Sequence record: SRR2962707_2322
Length of the DNA stretch: 48,359 bases
Reading direction: 5' to 3' (one strand)
The position numbers and the translations under genes are program-made. The notes beneath the pieces were generated by a model. That model had not been told where the DNA came from, ran no database searches, and saw only the letters and a list, made by a program, of their open reading frames with translations. Below are positions 17,748 through 23,820 of the stretch, piece after piece; position 1 is the stretch's first letter, and every line of letters starts with the position of its first letter.

Positions 17748-18686
17748 ATGTCATCCCGGATCTGGCAGCCCGCCGCTTCCCTGGAGGCCATGAAAGCGCG
17801 CGCCGAGCTTTTGAGCACGGTGCGCGCTTTTTTTGATGCCCGTGGCGTACTGGAGGTGGAAACCCCCGCCCTGGCCGCTCACGGCGTCACCGACCCGCAC
17901 ATCCATTGCATCGAAGTGCCCGGCTACGGCTGGCTGCAGAGCTCGCCGGAGTACCACATGAAGCGGCTGCTGGCCGCCGGCAGCGGCCCGATCTACCAGT
18001 TGTCCCGAGTGTTCCGTCACGGTGAGGCCGGCCCCCGCCACAATCCGGAATTCACCATGCTGGAGTGGTATCGGCCCGATTTCTCCCTGGAACAACTGAT
18101 CGACGAATGTCTGGCGCTGTTGGGTCAGTGGCTCCGGCGGCCCAATGTGATCCGCCCTTTCCGCCACCTGTTCGCCGAGGTCACCGGACTGGATCCGCTG
18201 ACCTGCCCGCCGGCGGCGCTGGTGGCCGCCGCCGGCGAGGCCGGCGCGCCGCACGGTCTGGACCATCGTCAGTCGGTGGATTTCCTGATGGCGACACAAG
18301 TGGAAACCGCACTGGATCCGGCCACGCTCACCGTGGTCACCGACTTCCCCGCCTGGGCGGCGGCGCTGGCTCAGGTGCGGGAGGATGAGGACGGTGTGCC
18401 GGTGGCGCGGCGCTTCGAGATTTACCACGGCGGCCTGGAGTTGGCCAACGGCTATCAGGAATTGACCGACGCCGGCGAGCAGGCCCGGCGCTTCGCCGCC
18501 GACAACCAAGAGCGTGCCGGGCACGGTGACCGCGCCATGGCACCGGACCCGCACCTTCTGGCCGCGCTGCAAACCGGCCTGCCGTCCTGCAGTGGCGTGG
18601 CCATGGGGGTGGAACGGCTATTGATGGCCATCCACGGATATCGCGACATCCGCCAGGTGCTCACCTTCCCCACCCAGCGGGCGTGA
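17748..18686 (+). CDS. epmA: EF-P lysine aminoacylase EpmA (GenX/PoxA)
   Basis: LQSSPEYHMKRLL, HNPEFTMLEWYR, ELANGYQEL and GVAMGVERL; follows efp. Confidence 0.95.
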   Translation: MSSRIWQPAASLEAMKARAELLSTVRAFFDARGVLEVETPALAAHGVTDPHIHCIEVPGYGWLQSSPEYHMKRLLAAGSGPIYQLSRVFRHGEAGPRHNPEFTMLEWYRPDFSLEQLIDECLALLGQWLRRPNVIRPFRHLFAEVTGLDPLTCPPAALVAAAGEAGAPHGLDHRQSVDFLMATQVETALDPATLTVVTDFPAWAAALAQVREDEDGVPVARRFEIYHGGLELANGYQELTDAGEQARRFAADNQERAGHGDRAMAPDPHLLAALQTGLPSCSGVAMGVERLLMAIHGYRDIRQVLTFPTQRA

Positions 18687-19580
18687 CGCCCCGGCGCGCT
18701 GCGCGGTGGCGGCAATCAGCTCCCCGACACGCGGCAACACGGCGGGGGGCAGGTCATGGCCCATCCCTTCCAGAATCGCCAGCCGGGCACCGGGAATCGC
18801 CTTGGCCGAGGCCTTGCCGCCGGCGGGGCGGATCAGCGGATCACTGCCACCGTGAATGATCTGCGCCGGACAGCGGACCCGGCGCAAATAGCGATTGAGG
18901 CTGCCGGTGGCGAGAATGGCCATGAACTGATTGCGGATACCGCGCGGGTTCAGGCCGCGTTCCCAGCTCTGCCGGAAGGCCCGCTCCAAGTCCTCCTGGT
19001 CCTGCGGCAGCGTGCCGCCGATCCTGCTCATCATGTCGCGGCCAAACGCCAGATACTGATCCAGGGTTTCCACTTTCACCTTGGGCGCCACCAGGGTTTT
19101 CAGCGCCGCCGGTTTGGGTGGCGGCAGGAACGGACTGTTGTTGCTGGACATGATCGAAGTAAGACTGAGCACCCGGCTGGCCTGGGTTGCCGCGGTCAGC
19201 TGCGCGATCATACCGCCCATGGAAGCGCCCACCAGATGCGCCCTGGCAATGCCGAGAGCGTCCAGCAGGCCCACCGTATCCGCCACCATATCCACCAGGG
19301 TGTAAGGCGCCGCCACCGGCATCCCCAGCATGTAGCGCGCCATCGCGCCCACTGGTCCCTGCCGGATCGGCGCGCGAATGGCGGTGGACATCCCCGCGTC
19401 CCGGTTATCAAAAGCGATCACCCGGTAACCGCGGCGCGCCATGTCATCCAGCAGCGCCTCCGGCCAGAACACCCACTGGGCGGACAGCCCCATGATGAAC
19501 AGGATCGGCTCGCCGTCCTCGGGCCCGCGGGCGTCGTAGTACAGCTCCATACCATTGCTTTTGATGATTCCGGATGACAC
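18618..19580 (-). CDS. Alpha/beta fold hydrolase
   Basis: FDNRDAGMS, nucleophile elbow GASMGG, HGGSDPL and GMGHDLP; probable GTG start at 19580 after GAGGAG (the ORF extends to 19595). Confidence 0.88.
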   Translation of the reverse strand: MSSGIIKSNGMELYYDARGPEDGEPILFIMGLSAQWVFWPEALLDDMARRGYRVIAFDNRDAGMSTAIRAPIRQGPVGAMARYMLGMPVAAPYTLVDMVADTVGLLDALGIARAHLVGASMGGMIAQLTAATQASRVLSLTSIMSSNNSPFLPPPKPAALKTLVAPKVKVETLDQYLAFGRDMMSRIGGTLPQDQEDLERAFRQSWERGLNPRGIRNQFMAILATGSLNRYLRRVRCPAQIIHGGSDPLIRPAGGKASAKAIPGARLAILEGMGHDLPPAVLPRVGELIAATAQRAGASRPLGGEGEHLADVAISVDGHQ

Positions 19581-19716
19581 CTGGACGCTCCTCACCTGTG
19601 GCTGGCCCGCCCCGCTCCCGATCTCCGGGCACCGACGCGATAATGGATCAAAGGTTAAGCAAGGCCGGGAAGGTCAACAAGCCATCCCCATCGGTTTGGC
19701 CCCGCCGGCATGGCCT

Positions 19717-20145
19717 TCAGCCTTCGTCTTCCTGCAGACAACGGCGCAGCAGCCGCGTCAGGGAGGCCTGATCGGAAGCGGACAACGGCTCACAGAGATG
19801 GTGCAGCGCGCGCCGTTCGATGCGGGCGCAAAGAGATGCCGTGCTCAAACCCTTGGCGGTCAGCGAGACCCTGGCGGCGCGGCGGTCCAGGTCATTGACC
19901 TGGCGTTCCACCAACCCCTCTTCCACCAAGGCGGTCACCAGCCGGGTCAACTGGCCCTTGTCCCTGCCGGAGCACGCCGCCACATCGCGCATCCCCATCG
20001 CTCCGCGCCGTTGCAGCAGCAACAACACCTGCACCGCTGGTGGCGGCAAGCGTATGCCCTCGCGACGCAACCCGTCGCGCAGCTCCCGGCGCAAGCGGAT
20101 CAACACGCCGTCCAGAGCCTGGGACAGCTCATTCAATACGTCCAA
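19717..20145 (-). CDS. MarR family transcriptional regulator
   Basis: DKGQLTRLVTALVEEGLVER...DRRAARVSLTAKG; TTG start after GAGG. Confidence 0.88.
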   Translation of the reverse strand: MDVLNELSQALDGVLIRLRRELRDGLRREGIRLPPPAVQVLLLLQRRGAMGMRDVAACSGRDKGQLTRLVTALVEEGLVERQVNDLDRRAARVSLTAKGLSTASLCARIERRALHHLCEPLSASDQASLTRLLRRCLQEDEG

Positions 20146-20254
20146 GCCGAATTCCTCTTGCCGCGGTTCCTGGTCGGACCGTTCATCATCCCCGAATCAT
20201 TGACCAAGTCTATCAAAGCCCCTTCCAGGAAGCGCGTGACGCGAACAAGCCTGA

Positions 20255-20284
20255 TTGACCTGGAATTCCGCTCGCTGCTAAAGT
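20255..20284 (+). promoter_or_regulatory. Putative sigma70 promoter of the leader-dapA transcript
   Basis: TTGACC (20255-60), an 18-nt spacer ending in the TGn extended -10, then TAAAGT (20279-84). Confidence 0.55.
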
Positions 20285-20319
20285 CGGCTTCCGACAGTGT
20301 CAATTCAGACCCGCTAGCG

Positions 20320-20403
20320 ATGCGCTTTGCTTTTTCCGATAAACACCAGGCCAAGAAACGGACCTCCGATGTCCGGGCCGGGTGCTGCATGGAAAAAGTC
20401 TGA
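20320..20403 (+). CDS. Putative attenuator leader peptide MRFAFSDKHQAKKRTSDVRAGCCMEKV (27 aa, 4 Lys)
   Basis: Short ORF between the promoter and the terminator; tandem AAG AAA codons sit inside the 1:2 hairpin; no clear Shine-Dalgarno sequence. Confidence 0.6.
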   Translation: MRFAFSDKHQAKKRTSDVRAGCCMEKV

Positions 20404-20426
20404 ATCACCACTGACGTCAGATCCTG

Positions 20427-20468
20427 AAAAAAAACCCGGTCGCGGACGGCGCGACCGGGTTTTTTATT
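20427..20468 (+). terminator. Intrinsic terminator (attenuator) in the dapA 5' leader
   Basis: Perfect 11-bp stem ACCCGGTCGCG/CGCGACCGGGT with loop GACGG, followed by a T run and preceded by A8; ends about 45 nt before the dapA start. Confidence 0.88.
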
Positions 20469-20512
20469 GCCCGCCAGTGCCCTCTTCGGCCTTCGACATA
20501 AGGAATCAGATC

Positions 20513-21379
20513 ATGTTTGAAGGTTCATTGGTTGCCATGGTGACACCATTCCAGGACGGAAACATTGATTTCGCAGGGGTGCGGCGTTGTCTTGATTGGC
20601 ACCTGGCGGGCACTACCGAAGGCCTGGTGATCGCCGGCACCACGGGCGAGGCGCCCACCTTGTCAAAAGAGGAATACGGGCAGCTCTTGGATGAGGTGTG
20701 CCGCTATGTGGCGGGCCGTTTGCCGGTGATCGCCGGCGCCACCTCCTACGACCCGGTGGCGGCGTTACAGTGGGTGCGCATCGCCCGGGAATGCGGAGCG
20801 GACGCGGCACTGTGCGCCACCGGCTTTTATAACCGGCCCGATCAGGAAGGGCTGTACCACCACTTCCGATACTTGCATGACAACAGTGATCTCCCCCTGC
20901 TGATTTACAACATTCCACCTCGCACCATTGTCGATATTCAACCGGAAACCCTGGCCCGACTGGCCGCTCTGGAACGAGTGATCGGTGTCAAGGATGCCTG
21001 CCGTGACCTGGCCAGGCCGGCGCAGGAACACGCGCTCATCGGCGACGGCTTCACCTGGCTTTCTGGCGATGACTGCACCGCGGCGGCCTACAACGCCATG
21101 GGCGGACGGGGCGTGATCAGCGTTATCGCCAACATCCTGCCCCGGGTAAGCCGGCAATTACAGGACGCTTGCCGGAGCAATGACTTCGCCACGGCAACCC
21201 GCTTGCAGCAGGCGCTGACTCCGTTGATCCAGGCGTTGAGCCGCACCCCCAACCCGACCGGCGTGAAGTACGCCTGCTCGTTGCTGGAGTTGTGCACGGA
21301 GGAATGCAGGCCACCAATGATGGCGCTGGACGAGCCCGACCGCCAGGCGATACGGACAGCGCTGGAGCCGTGGTTATAG
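20513..21379 (+). CDS. dapA: 4-hydroxy-tetrahydrodipicolinate synthase (DapA family), probably a paralogue
   Basis: MFEGSLVAMVTPF, GTTGE, YNRP, YNIPPRT (Y133/R138), GVKDA (Schiff-base Lys) and SGDD; RBS AAGGA. Confidence 0.85.
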   Translation: MFEGSLVAMVTPFQDGNIDFAGVRRCLDWHLAGTTEGLVIAGTTGEAPTLSKEEYGQLLDEVCRYVAGRLPVIAGATSYDPVAALQWVRIARECGADAALCATGFYNRPDQEGLYHHFRYLHDNSDLPLLIYNIPPRTIVDIQPETLARLAALERVIGVKDACRDLARPAQEHALIGDGFTWLSGDDCTAAAYNAMGGRGVISVIANILPRVSRQLQDACRSNDFATATRLQQALTPLIQALSRTPNPTGVKYACSLLELCTEECRPPMMALDEPDRQAIRTALEPWL

Positions 21380-21400
21380 GAGGGATGATGAAAGGCGGCG

Positions 21401-21437
21401 AGGCGCGGACGGCCGAACCGTCCGCGCCGCCGCGTTT
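21401..21437. terminator. GC-rich hairpin between convergent dapA and acylase genes
   Basis: GGCGCGGACGG-ccgaa-CCGTCCGCGCC stem with TTTT shortly downstream. Confidence 0.55.
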
Positions 21438-23820
21438 TACTGGCTCAACTCGGTGATCGAGATGCTTTGTTGCTTGATCTGTTCCTCGGTGAACGGGAAC
21501 TCAAGCCATGTTTTCTCTGAATAATCCTCGGTAGCCTCGCTGTAATAGGGGCTGGCCGGGTCCGTGGTCACCGCGTGAGTGAGCATGGTGTAGGCCCGCA
21601 CCGGCTCGCCTTCCGGGAAATCCACCACGTGCATGTAGGTGTTGCGCAGCACCGTGAAGTAGCCTTCATAGCCTTCACCGCCGAACTGTGGAATGTCGGT
21701 GCCGGTCTTGGCGTACTTCTGCCAGTCACGGACCTTGGCGTTCAGAGCCACGCCGGAGTCCACCACTTCCTGTACGGCCTCGGAAAAAGCAGCTTCCACG
21801 GCGGCAACCACATCCGCGTTACCGGTATTCAGGCCATTCGGTGTGTGTATCGGATCTTCCGCGTTGAACGGATTGGCGTAAAGCTCATCCTGGTTGCGGA
21901 TCTTGAGCCAGAACGCGCTCCAGATATGCGCGCCGGCGGCGTCCAGGTTGCCGGTGTTGTCCCAATTGTCCAGCACGATGCACGCCTCGGCTTCATCCGC
22001 GGTATCACCCGGGCAAACCAGGGGCAACACCTCCGCCTTCAACAATTCCGCGCTCAGGTTACGGCTGTTCAGCACCATTTCCCGCACCGTCTCACTGCTG
22101 GCGCCCGCCATGCCGTGACCATCGGTGCCCGCCTTGCGGTCTTCCACCATCATGTGCCCCATGCGGGTACGCAGGCTTTGTTCATAGTCTTCCTGACCCA
22201 TGATGCCGGCGTAACCGGTCAGCGGCTGGTCCGGATTACTCAGCCAATAACTGTCATTCATGTTGGCAATGTAATCCGTGGTCAGCAGCACCGGCAGGTT
22301 GGCCGGACCGAACGTCCCCGGCGCGGCGGAATCCGAATCGGTTTTCCAGTCACACTCGGAACGGCTACCGTCCAGCAGTGGCAGACCGGGTACCGCCTGC
22401 AGGATGACCGGTCCCAGGGTCGGCACCAGACAGCCCGCCAACATGCTGTCCGGCACGTTGGGAACCGCTGTGATATCGGAATACAGCGCACGCTCGTCGT
22501 CGCGGCCAATGGCGGAGGTATTCACCCAGGGAATGCCCACGTACCGCTTGATGCTGGCCACGAACTCGTCCAGCGAACCGGCATGGCCGAAGGCGAAAAA
22601 GTTCTTGAACGAGCGGGTATTCTCCAGGTTCACGTCACGCAATGTGAACGCCTGATTGGTGTCCCAGGCCAACGCCGGATGCAGCGATGACAGGTTGATC
22701 ATCGGACCGTACTCGGAACGATAAAGAGTGCGGGACACAGGCGCCAGAGAACCGTCCTCCTGCAGCACTTGAACGGTGATGGTTTCCTCTTGCAGGGGCT
22801 GTTCCGCGCCATCCTTGATGTAGGTGGTCGGGTCGCCGTCCTTCAAGGCGAGGCGATAAAGTGTGAACCGCCGCGCGGTGGACACCGTATGCGACCAGGA
22901 CACGTTGTTGTTGAAGCCCAACAACACATGGGCGCGCCCATGATGGAGACGCCGGCCACATCAAGTTTGCCCGGCAGGGTCATGTGCATTTGATAGAAGC
23001 GATCCACCCCTTCCAGATACCAGTGTGGATTGGCAAAATTCAGCGACCGGCCGTTCTGGGTAGCTTCGCCGCCAAAGGCATAAGTGTTACTGCCGATACC
23101 GAACTGGCGCCCCAGTTGGAATCGCTCCGGATCCAGATCGATCTCGCTGCCGCTTTCAGGGGAAGGGTTACGCAGACGCAGCGGTGCCGCTGAAGGTGGC
23201 GCGGCAGCGGTAATCTCCTCGACCCAGTTGGCGGAGCTGGCCGCCAGATTCAACGCCACCAGACGGCGAAATACAGCCTTTTCATCGATTTCACCAAGCC
23301 ATTCCGCGTCACGGCAATCGGCATGGCGACCGGCATGCTGGCCGGCCTGGATTTCATTCAGGTAGCGGTTATAACCAACAGCGAAGCCATCCGACAGCTC
23401 GCGCATCTCTTGCGGCTGCTCCGCCATGAAGTCCTCGACCTGCTGGTCATTAACCACAAACCGGAAGAAGAAATCCGCTTCCAGGTTCGACGGCGAACCG
23501 AAAGTCCCCGTCACCGCCGCCGGTTCATCCGGACCAAAATACCGCGACCGTTCTCCACGGAAGGTCACATAAGCGTCCGCCAGCACACAGAGGTTATCCT
23601 CGGCAATGGCATAGCCGTGGCCATAACCAAGACCACGATAGTCGTCAGCACTGATATGAGGGATACCCTGGGTGGTTCGTTCAATGGTGGCGTTGTAGGA
23701 GATCGAGGACCGATTGGAGGAGGAATCACTGCCACAGCCGCTCAAGGCGACCGCGACGGACAACACGCAAGCGGCGGACAAGCCGCCCCTATAGTGAACA
23801 GAAAAGTCAGGAAAAGGCAT
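21437..23820 (-). pseudogene. Penicillin-acylase family Ntn hydrolase (PvdQ/QuiP, AHL-acylase-like) lipoprotein, split by a 1-bp frameshift near 22928
   Basis: The 5' ORF has lipobox ALSGC, GIPHI, GIG-SNTYAFG (Ser nucleophile) and ANPHW. The 3' ORF continues LLGFNNNVSWSHTVS...ANMNDSYW. Adding one G restores ...GAPMVLLGFN. Confidence 0.8.

Follow-up and report, generated by a model that had tools for sequence, protein, structure and literature searches.

A short leader upstream of an accessory dapA gene is probably a transcription attenuator of the leader-peptide type, in which a ribosome would read lysine (Lys) codons. For this part of sequence record SRR2962707_2322, which is ascribed to a marine hydrocarbon degrader and was analysed as a window of 48,359 nt, ribosome-mediated attenuation is taken as the best explanation because of the layout of the leader, its conservation, its enrichment in Lys codons, its restriction to one clade of DapA proteins and the absence of a rival Rfam, Pfam or NCBIfam family. 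Leader-peptide attenuation is the textbook form of control for Trp, His, Phe, Leu, Thr and Ile/Val, with trpL of Escherichia coli as its type. The control of lysine synthesis, of which dapA is the first committed gene, is usually described in terms of the L-box riboswitch, ArgP/LysR-type regulators and enzyme feedback. Most likely, the ribosome itself reports lysine shortage here by way of a Lys-rich ORF and a switchable stop signal. If so, lysine joins the short list of amino acids that are sensed by ribosome stalling, and does so in the group in which attenuation was discovered.

Organization of the leader and of dapA2

On the + strand, a sigma-70-like promoter is followed by a 27-codon, Lys-bearing ORF, an intrinsic terminator and dapA2. 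An earlier note on this DNA had pointed to a promoter, an ORF, three alternative helices and a terminator, and each of these elements was confirmed in place. The features are as follows.

19717-20145, - strand: gene for a MarR-family regulator, divergent, with a TTG start (Pfam MarR_2, 6.9e-10); context only
20255-20284, + strand: sigma-70-like promoter, with -35 at 20255-20260, an 18-nt spacer and a TG-extended -10 at 20279-20284
20295-20310, + strand: 5' side of an outer helix that joins 20295-99 and 20303-10 to 20398-20405 and 20409-13
20320-20403, + strand: leader ORF of 27 codons, ATG at 20320, stop codon at 20401-20403, Lys at codons 8, 12, 13 and 26
20341-20358, + strand: putative regulatory Lys codons, codon 8 at 20341-43 and tandem codons 12-13 at 20353-58, overlapping or flanking segment 1
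20344-20363, + strand: segment 1 (20344-52 and 20359-63), 5' strand of the 1:2 anti-antiterminator
20371-20384, + strand: segment 2, within the ORF (codons 18-22), alternative partner of segment 1 or segment 3
20427-20468, + strand: intrinsic terminator (3:4), in which 16 stem pairs and a loop of 5 nt lie between an A-run and a U-run
20434-20447, + strand: segment 3, the terminator 5' arm and part of the loop, alternatively paired with segment 2
20500-20504, + strand: Shine-Dalgarno sequence of dapA2 (anti-SD duplex, -6.2 kcal/mol)
20513-21379, + strand: dapA2, a monocistronic gene for a dihydrodipicolinate synthase (DHDPS) of 288 aa; the gene downstream is convergent

From this promoter, transcription is predicted to start near 20291. 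No other promoter-like site occurs in 19500-21800, for which shuffled sequences yield 0.4 +/- 0.7. Both hexamers are unchanged in two congeners (G001 and G009), in which the spacer differs at many positions, and the -35 hexamer is found again in a member of another genus (G206) and in genus g29. The gap between the terminator and the dapA2 start, 44 nt in length, contains no promoter-like site, and dapA2 would therefore depend on read-through.

That gap also bears on the idea that 20291-20468 is a stand-alone gene for a small RNA or a small protein, with dapA2 transcribed independently. The region is equipped with a conserved promoter and a strong terminator of its own, transcription that ended at this terminator would leave a stable RNA of about 178 nt, and attenuator RNAs are able to act in trans in Sinorhizobium, according to the available text of PMC10117765. 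Independent transcription of dapA2 is nevertheless highly unlikely: there is no promoter-like site ahead of the gene within those 44 nt, the element always accompanies this DapA clade, and a role in trans would supplement attenuation, not replace it. Additionally, no Lys-rich leader was seen upstream of lysA or lysC in five genomes, in which lysA follows a gene for a small lipoprotein and lysC follows alaS.

What had been noticed as a dapA-family gene encodes a true DHDPS, as its product scores 274.9 bits against NCBIfam TIGR00674 (equivalog cut-off, 206.15), matches Pfam DHDPS at 1.1e-77 and has 2rfg as its closest solved structure (E 3.4e-96). The invariant columns among DapA sequences include T43, T44, Y106, Y132, R137 and K160, which presumably correspond to the catalytic residues of the E. 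coli enzyme. Unforeseen was that dapA2 is a second copy; the housekeeping dapA, whose product is 39 % identical, adjoins bamC (dapA-bamC) and is without a leader. Two further congeners (G006 and G007) possess the marR gene and its first ~100 upstream bases and lack both the leader and dapA2. Attenuation by Lys codons, if true, would explain why a second dapA is kept by many marine and other Gammaproteobacteria, since the housekeeping copy would cover normal supply and the ribosome would turn on the other one when lysyl-tRNA is short.

Competing helices and the proposed switch

The three alternative helices drawn in the earlier note were all found by folding. Helix 1:2, which joins 20344-52 with 20376-84 and 20359-63 with 20371-75, has an energy of -17.8 kcal/mol, occurs in the minimum-energy fold, is retained in the consensus fold of four sequences, and holds the tandem Lys codons in an internal loop. 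Helix 2:3 joins 20371-83 with 20434-47 through 13 pairs and one bulge, and its duplex energy of -26.3 kcal/mol was equalled by none of 300 dinucleotide-shuffled leaders (-16.2 +/- 2.5; z -4.06). Helix 3:4, the terminator hairpin (-28.8 kcal/mol), consists as folded of 12 G/C-rich and 4 A-U pairs and is followed by six U. A terminator thus lies between ORF and gene, the antiterminator uses the 5' arm of that terminator, and the 5' strand of 1:2 would lie under a ribosome stalled at the Lys codons. In the minimum-energy folds, the outer helix closes the whole leader hairpin around the ORF stop codon; 20295-20310 is invariant in G001 and G009 and conserved only partly in G206, and a role for this helix is therefore put forward tentatively.

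As a whole, 20290-20470 folds with -77.2 kcal/mol (z -6.16; 0/200 shuffles as good), and 20291-20426, which excludes the terminator, with -46.9 kcal/mol (z -3.53; 0/200). The complementary strand is as stable or more stable (-84.6, z -6.62), and folding energy alone therefore cannot tell the strand. What places the element on the + strand is its promoter, its ORF and, in relatives, changes from A-U to G-U. The terminator looks bidirectional, its minus-strand reading being likewise listed as terminator-like. Chance might be invoked on these grounds, i.e. a spurious ORF and GC-rich self-complementarity beside an ordinary bidirectional terminator that shields marR from antisense read-through. The U-run on one side of the symmetric terminator is mirrored by an A-run on the other, both strands fold well, and a GC-rich arm will often meet a complement in a GC-rich leader; in 8 of 13 lineages (L024, L026, L032, L039, L042, L043, L045 and L047) 2:3 is no better than in shuffles. 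In the other five (the window clade, L022, L023, L027 and L044), it is better than shuffles (<=5/300 as good), and the count for L050 is 11/300. With the ORF, promoter and Lys codons conserved across lineages, chance is already disfavoured and has only the slightest probability.

Under the Lys-codon attenuator, transcription from near 20291 could reach dapA2 only by reading through the terminator at 20427-20468, and a ribosome would translate the 27-codon ORF. When lysine is plentiful, this ribosome would cross segment 2, reach the stop codon and leave, whereupon the leader would collapse into the long hairpin that includes 1:2, segment 3 would be free, 3:4 would form and transcription would end. 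When lysine is scarce, charged tRNA-Lys would become limiting, and a ribosome would stall at Lys 8 or at Lys 12-13 and cover segment 1. Its 3' edge would stop just short of segment 2, which could then pair with segment 3 as the latter emerges; the terminator would be blocked and dapA2 transcribed.

Co-transcriptional folding was modelled with a transcript cut at 20450, before segment 4, by placing ribosome masks on its minimum-energy fold. Masking of 20338-20369 leads to 2:3, and masks at Lys 8, 12 or 13 abolish 1:2 and yield 2:3. For a ribosome whose A site holds Lys 12 or 13, segment 2 begins 1-3 nt past the modelled 3' edge. These results agree with what the earlier note had reasoned, namely that a ribosome stalled on Lys-Lys covers segment 1 and frees segment 2. 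A mask at the stop codon of the window ORF also gives 2:3, so that at equilibrium a Lys stall is not separable from arrival at the stop codon. In the complete leader at equilibrium, the terminator is always kept, with or without masks; such folds thus cannot display switching, and folds are informative only if cut before segment 4. A clean switch, from 0 to at least 7 sequestered arm bases, appeared in only 5 of 15 sequences. Because equilibrium folding is ambiguous, the attenuation model needs folding kinetics.

Translation of the leader ORF, on which the switch would depend, is not assured, since the ORF is without a Shine-Dalgarno sequence; its anti-SD duplex has +0.4 kcal/mol, compared with -6.2 for dapA2. 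Values of +1.2 to -3.5 kcal/mol were obtained for 18 of the 19 likely leader starts examined, the exception being L039 (AAGGA; -5.7), and dapA genes with a correctly placed start have -5.4 to -8.8 kcal/mol. Conservation of the frame and synonymous codon variation are signs that the leader is translated. The missing Shine-Dalgarno sequence is by itself a small puzzle. The leader ORF matched no family in Pfam or NCBIfam, and an exact look-up of five leader peptides, its own included, among 15 billion proteins found none of them. Nine runs that are recorded as RNA contain the stretch or part of it, as contigs that carry neither transcript ends nor levels; in three of them (X1, X2 and X4) the whole region is spanned by contigs of 9-17 kb, and in another (X5) the contig breaks at 20210, 20479 and 20691, which are not readable as transcript ends.

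Conservation among relatives and across the DapA clade

The closest relatives compared are the two congeners G001 and G009, whose DapA is 90 % identical in each case to that of the window, and G206 from another genus (65 %). In all three, the 27-codon frame is kept in length, start and stop, and Lys 8, 12 and 13 are conserved; Lys 26 (20395-97) is replaced by Glu in G009. Indels are present on both flanks of the ORF and absent within it. The leader ORF and its Lys codons therefore withstand the comparison with orthologues in which the earlier note had seen a possible refutation. The terminator stem is invariant in the same three genomes, and its 5' arm is nearly identical in five further lineages. 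The stem covariation that had likewise been proposed as a check is nearly absent: among four alignable sequences, which are few and too similar, both partners have changed in 1 of 40 consensus pairs, segment 3 does not vary, and this single compensatory pair is too little to count as support. One-sided changes comprise six A-U to G-U replacements at five pairs, all of which preserve pairing only on the + strand, and there are seven broken cells.

Within the window, G001 and G009, the core at 20341-20425 is nearly invariant in nucleotides, and the first seven codons of the ORF vary freely at all codon positions. This pattern might suggest an attenuator whose sensor is something other than Lys codons, with the hairpin being bound by a protein or a small RNA, or by a metabolite in the manner of a riboswitch not yet described, and with the ORF being incidental. 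An ORF that has no Shine-Dalgarno sequence and a hairpin that beats its shuffles (z -3.53) would also fit. Such a sensor is unlikely, however. No Rfam match exists here or in eight related loci, and, apart from the terminator arm and a Lys-bearing ORF that opens with ATG, the lineages have no sequence or shape in common. The inner hairpin loop at 20364-70 is rewritten in G206, where the stem is preserved via an A-U to G-U change. Furthermore, an in-frame excess of AAR codons together with synonymous variation is unexpected for a non-coding aptamer.

That excess is seen beyond the close relatives. Homologues of DapA2 retrieved at E <= 1e-70 or 1e-75 define 27 genome loci, all of one DapA clade and drawn from several families and orders of Gammaproteobacteria. 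In 25 of these loci, dapA is preceded by a short ORF that starts with ATG and contains 2-6 Lys codons; L025 and L046 are the exceptions. Leaders were also present in 2 of 80 metagenome loci (L047 and L050), most of the 80 DapA homologues being from other clades. In distant members of the clade the ORFs differ, are again Lys-rich and again precede a terminator; between lineages, the ORF regions cannot be aligned. A terminator is present in all 13 lineages outside genus g29, which is without a canonical U-run terminator; that of L050 was missed by the automatic scan because its loop is long. A point against the Lys-codon reading is that regulatory codons are few, with three or four in the window and only 2 of 30 codons in one lineage (L024).

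Taking one representative for each of 14 lineages, there are 55 Lys among 368 codons, and AAR codons number 55 in frame, the remaining frames having 13 and 14. When the same rule of choosing the ORF with the most Lys was applied to shuffled sequences, it returned 19.3 +/- 5.6, with 0 of 200 reaching 55, and the reverse complement returned 16. Among 65 other dapA upstream regions, which include the leader locus L050, 58 score 0-2 under this rule. Lys accounts for 15.5 % of residues in the leaders and 3.0 % in the cognate DapA proteins (5.3-fold), and this is the sole strong enrichment, the next being Met at 2.5-fold. The leader ORF is, in other words, enriched in codons for the amino acid made by the pathway of the gene it precedes. 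In genus g29 (12 genomes), a conserved block contains Lys codons that alternate between AAA and AAG, a Cys codon that also varies synonymously, and one Ala position at which every GCN triplet occurs and which, in 1 of the 12, is Gly (GGT) instead; this variation is a sign of translation.

Phylogenetically, all 28 leader-bearing DapA rows of the tree fall inside one 33-row set (SH-aLRT 99), and no leader was found in the remaining 77 rows. The balance of the evidence tilts slightly towards an ancient family of homologous, as yet undescribed Lys-specific leader-peptide attenuators that travels with a patchy second dapA paralogue through many gammaproteobacterial families and orders, with leader translation that would dispense with a Shine-Dalgarno sequence and a terminated leader that may also serve as a small RNA.

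Relation to described regulators

The likeness to trpL-type attenuators (including his, thr, leu, ilv and pheA) consists in end-product codons within a short ORF, three competing helices and a terminator before the gene, and both trpL and the window leader have two tandem regulatory codons. The trp/his/thr geometry invoked by the earlier note is to this extent upheld, given a Lys-codon ORF, helices 1:2, 2:3 and 3:4, and a terminator. The general scheme of leader-peptide attenuation is given in the available text of PMC12925634 and PMC13236596. There are also differences. The window leader uses Lys codons, for which no described attenuator was found; its ORF crosses segment 2 and has its stop 17 nt beyond, whereas a trpL-type ORF stops between segments 1 and 2; it is without a Shine-Dalgarno sequence; and it precedes a single accessory paralogue rather than a pathway operon.

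Thr_leader (RF00506), an aspartate-family attenuator, is the sole Rfam model to touch the region, and it does so over the terminator only (20414-20468); its 21.6 bits (E 0.6) fall well below the gathering score of 55, so the window leader is not a member. With the L-box, the usual RNA control of lysine genes (cf. PMC3082890), the proposed element would share repression of transcription by lysine through a leader terminator; the sensor differs, being an aptamer in the L-box and, as proposed here, the translating ribosome. Within 19000-22000 no riboswitch model reached E <= 10, and in eight related loci none reached E <= 0.1. Membership in the lysine riboswitch family or in another Rfam family is not supported, as no covariance model came near its gathering score.

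Arrest-peptide sensors are alike in that translation of a short upstream ORF decides downstream transcription. In TnaC and SpeFL, a conserved peptide binds its effector in the exit tunnel, and control is Rho-dependent; the window leader, in contrast, is without a conserved peptide motif and has an intrinsic terminator. A translated ORF might still act as a regulatory nascent peptide of this kind, or as a general sensor of translation speed, with lysyl-tRNA supply going unread. The leaders are basic, with many Lys/Arg-x-Lys/Arg patterns, and the codon after the Lys codons often starts with C; motifs of the Lys/Arg-x-Lys/Arg type are described as prone to context-specific arrest in the available text of PMC12583479. 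Across lineages, however, no motif is conserved, leaders are 17 to 33 codons long (counted from the proximal ATG if several are in frame), and the positions of Lys vary. The C-terminal half of the peptide instead follows the pairing of the RNA with the terminator arm, and the controlled gene encodes the entry enzyme of the lysine pathway. A peptide-based or speed-based sensor is accordingly quite unlikely.

Leader-peptide control for lysine seems to be previously undescribed. No description of a Lys-codon attenuator on dapA was found in the open-access literature that was searched, including the available text of PMC10117765, PMC12925634, PMC13236596, PMC545781 and PMC2965389; the earlier note had likewise known of none. 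A conserved Lys-codon attenuator would extend the leader-peptide device to a new amino acid. Annotators would gain a recognizable leader that is currently unannotated, and a compact lysine-responsive switch might be had for reporters or pathway engineering. In the available text of PMC10117765, a Thr/Lys-rich leader is proposed before the aspartate dehydrogenase gene of Sinorhizobium.

The leader region upstream of dapA2

The dapA-family gene of the window, here called dapA2, is separated from a divergent MarR-family gene by a gap of 367 bp, and all elements of the leader lie inside that gap. The leader is probably a classical leader-peptide attenuator in a new, lysine-specific form, its translation and its response to lysine being predicted from sequence. 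The features of the region are as follows.

17748-18686, + strand: epmA (genX), EF-P beta-lysine ligase, another lysine-related gene
19717-20145, - strand: MarR-family gene, TTG start, divergent from dapA2
20255-20284, + strand: promoter-like site (good -35, 18-nt spacer, TG-extended -10)
20320-20403, + strand: leader ORF of 27 codons, with Lys at codons 8, 12, 13 and 26
20427-20468, + strand: terminator hairpin and U-run, -28.8 kcal/mol
20513-21379, + strand: dapA-family gene (dapA2)
21437-22927, - strand: amidase ORF, Pfam positions 225-675
22843-23820, - strand: amidase ORF, Pfam positions 2-224

The promoter-like sequence, the 27-codon Lys ORF and the strong terminator before dapA had been described in an earlier note, and all three are present where it placed them. 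The promoter-like site is the sole one within 19500-21800, shuffled sequence yielding 0.4 +/- 0.7 such sites. The terminator and the start of dapA are 44 nt apart, a stretch with no promoter-like site, and therefore dapA should depend on read-through. A stand-alone small RNA ending at the terminator would leave the missing dapA promoter unexplained; it is possible that the terminated leader acts in trans. The minimum-energy fold of 20290-20470 (-77.2 kcal/mol; z -6.16) includes the claimed helix 1:2, in which segment 1 (20344-20352 plus 20359-20363) pairs with segment 2 (20371-20384), and the tandem Lys codons sit in its internal loop. The 2:3 antiterminator drawn by the same note, which joins segment 2 to segment 3 (20434-20447), is likewise real and unusually strong, at -26.3 kcal/mol against -16.2 +/- 2.5 in shuffled leaders, with none of 300 shuffles equalling it.

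Folding energy does not discriminate the strand of the leader. Assignment to the + strand relies on the promoter and the ORF, and also on five base pairs at which a total of six one-sided changes turn A-U into G-U, leaving pairing possible on that strand only. The terminator itself is symmetric, having eight A 5' of the stem and six T 3', and its minus-strand reading also scored as terminator-like; a terminator in that direction would stop antisense read-through, from the convergent amidase gene into dapA2, before marR. Contigs from RNA libraries of a closely related strain carry a G to A change at 20338, making codon 7 Asn as in the congener G001, and an A-run at 20427 that is one A shorter, the remaining leader being identical.

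Conservation, lysine enrichment and possible translation

Comparative evidence supports the Lys-sensing attenuator reading put forward in the earlier note, which had named conservation of the leader ORF and its Lys codons in orthologues as a check: Lys 8, 12 and 13 recur in the nearest genomes, G001 and G009, and in G206, from a different genus of the same family. In G001 and G009 the leader is 83-84% identical to that of the window; both promoter hexamers, the ATG, the stop, the three segments and the terminator are kept, while the promoter spacer and the first seven ORF codons are free to change and Lys 26 is Glu in G009. G206, whose DapA is 65% identical, likewise has an ORF of 27 codons, here with Lys at 8, 10, 12, 13 and 26, and indels fall on both sides of the ORF with none within it; the inner hairpin has a different loop sequence and retains its stem via an A-U to G-U change. 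In the congeners G006 and G007, which lack dapA2, the first ~100 bp upstream of marR are common with the window (20146-20246), beyond which they diverge into a short stretch like the 3' half of the window terminator and then a T-run; the leader-dapA2 module therefore looks as if it had been acquired or lost as a whole at this marR-adjacent site.

On sequence grounds, the element belongs to a family accompanying an accessory dapA in many Gammaproteobacteria. With the DapA2 protein as query, 27 loci passed a cut-off of E <= 1e-70 or 1e-75: 22 genomes came from a sample of 401 for the order, and a further 5 from the 400 scored genomes sampled for the class. Upstream of dapA2, 25 of these loci have a short ATG-initiated ORF containing 2-6 Lys codons; L025 and L046 have none. 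These ORFs span 17-33 codons, the proximal ATG being taken where several are in frame, and in the majority of the 28 leader regions compiled the Lys ORF is the sole ATG ORF of at least 10 codons that ends before the terminator. Among metagenome DapA homologues (43-52% identical), only 2 of 80 (L047 and L050) have a leader. A quick maximum-likelihood tree, built from 110 rows, places every one of the 28 leader-bearing proteins within one 33-row set (SH-aLRT 99), together with five leaderless rows (L025, L046, L048, L049 and L052); the other 77 rows include no leader. A canonical hairpin with U-run is present in all 13 lineages outside one genus, g29. The window and G206 share a near-identical 5' arm of this hairpin with four other lineages, and the remaining ones have an arm that still resembles it, a likeness that points to common descent. 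That the leader is a riboswitch or a protein-binding RNA is unlikely, as only the Lys ORF and the terminator arm are common to the lineages and neither the window nor eight related loci gave an Rfam match.

In the 12 genomes of g29 (L028-L041), the region ~170 to 10 nt upstream of dapA2 begins with a highly conserved leader ORF with 4-6 Lys. No clean U-run terminator comes after it; a short hairpin with a U-rich tail is nested in a longer one, which carries compensatory changes and stops ~10 nt short of the dapA Shine-Dalgarno, and the output stage may therefore differ from that of the window.

Lysine enrichment was assessed with one representative from each of 14 lineages. Because ORFs had been picked by most Lys, the same rule was imposed on the controls. 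The 368 leader codons include 55 Lys; AAR triplets occur 55 times in the ORF frame, as opposed to 13 and 14 times in the two alternative frames. Dinucleotide shuffles gave 19.3 +/- 5.6 Lys (maximum 38; 0/200 reaching 55) and the reverse complement 16, while 58 of 65 other dapA upstream regions gave 0-2, the seven with three or more including L050, a true leader, and L104, where the end of the upstream gene was picked up. Lys makes up 15.5% of leader residues against 3.0% of the cognate DapA2 proteins, a 5.3-fold enrichment, followed by Met (2.5-fold), Cys (2.0-fold) and Arg (1.6-fold). By eye, many leader Lys codons at related loci are AAA followed by a codon beginning with C. An arrest peptide, in which the peptide's own sequence would matter, is unlikely, as the leaders have no conserved peptide motif in common.

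Translation of the ORF is favoured by a reading frame preserved amid indel-rich surroundings and by the otherwise invariant g29 block, which varies at third positions: three Lys codons alternate between AAA and AAG, one Ala codon occurs as all four GCN (with Gly GGT there in one genome), and one Cys codon is TGC or TGT. Counting against translation is the missing Shine-Dalgarno, which is the main unexplained feature of the leader ORFs. The window ORF has none at its start at 20320 (anti-SD duplex +0.4 kcal/mol), and likely starts range from +1.2 to -3.5 kcal/mol in 18 of 19 leaders examined (the exception is L039, -5.7), against a strong -5.4 to -8.8 for dapA2 genes with correctly placed starts. 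From the distance between promoter and ORF, translation in one or two lineages could start almost at the 5' end of the transcript, making them nearly leaderless; the window leader is not, its 5' UTR being about 29 nt.

No Pfam or NCBIfam family matches the leader peptides, and the five that were looked up are all absent from a 15-billion-protein collection. In the full text searched, mainly that of non-subscription journals, no Lys-codon attenuator on dapA was found; the nearest case there comes from Sinorhizobium, where a leader rich in Thr and Lys has been proposed upstream of an aspartate dehydrogenase gene (PMC10117765).

A candidate mechanism

When the transcript is cut at 20450, before segment 4 is present, free RNA forms a long hairpin that includes 1:2 and leaves segment 3 single-stranded. 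The earlier note's proposal to fold the leader with and without ribosome masks was borne out in one respect, in that 2:3 forms once a footprint is placed so that Lys 8, 12 or 13 occupies the A site; it did not set stalling apart, as a ribosome parked at the stop codon also yields 2:3. With the ribosome at Lys 12 or 13, its 3' edge is modelled at 20366 or 20369, just short of segment 2 at 20371, so stalling would free segment 2, the terminator (3:4) would be blocked and dapA2 would be transcribed. The window ORF, unlike that of trpL, continues across segment 2; a ribosome that meets no delay would traverse this segment, terminate at 20401-20403 and leave, after which a hairpin of -46.9 kcal/mol would re-form and transcription would stop at the terminator. 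Equilibrium folds of the full-length leader all contain the terminator, a clean switch (from none to at least seven sequestered arm bases) is seen in only 5 of 15 sequences, and no more than 5 of 13 lineages have a 2:3 better than shuffles; the mechanism would therefore have to depend on kinetics.

The dapA2 gene and its neighbourhood

The DapA protein of the window scores 274.9 bits on the NCBIfam dapA equivalog (cut-off 206.15), and its best solved relative is 2rfg, a dihydrodipicolinate synthase (DHDPS; E 3.4e-96). The gene is a second copy and not the housekeeping gene. G001 and G009 each have an orthologue that is 90% identical and, in addition, a DHDPS gene that is 39% identical; G006 and G007 have the latter only. 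Five other genomes with a leader-type copy were compared, and each has a second, higher-scoring DHDPS gene as well. The 39% copy has neither leader ORF nor terminator, and directly 3' of it is a lipoprotein gene, which we take to be the usual dapA-bamC arrangement. DapA2 of the window has Ala-Pro..Glu-Tyr at residues 47-55, where the clade consensus is Ser-Pro..Glu-His, and Thr-Ser-Tyr-Asp-Pro-Val-Ala at 77-83, where it is Gly-Ser-Asn-Asn-Pro-x-Glu. Both stretches presumably line the lysine feedback site of Escherichia coli DHDPS, and from these substitutions the copy might be feedback-insensitive.

Elsewhere in the neighbourhood, epmA, 1.8 kb upstream of the leader, appears unlinked to it, and the penicillin-amidase family gene at 21437-23820 (- strand) is split into two overlapping ORFs, which could reflect a frameshift, a pseudogene or a sequencing error.
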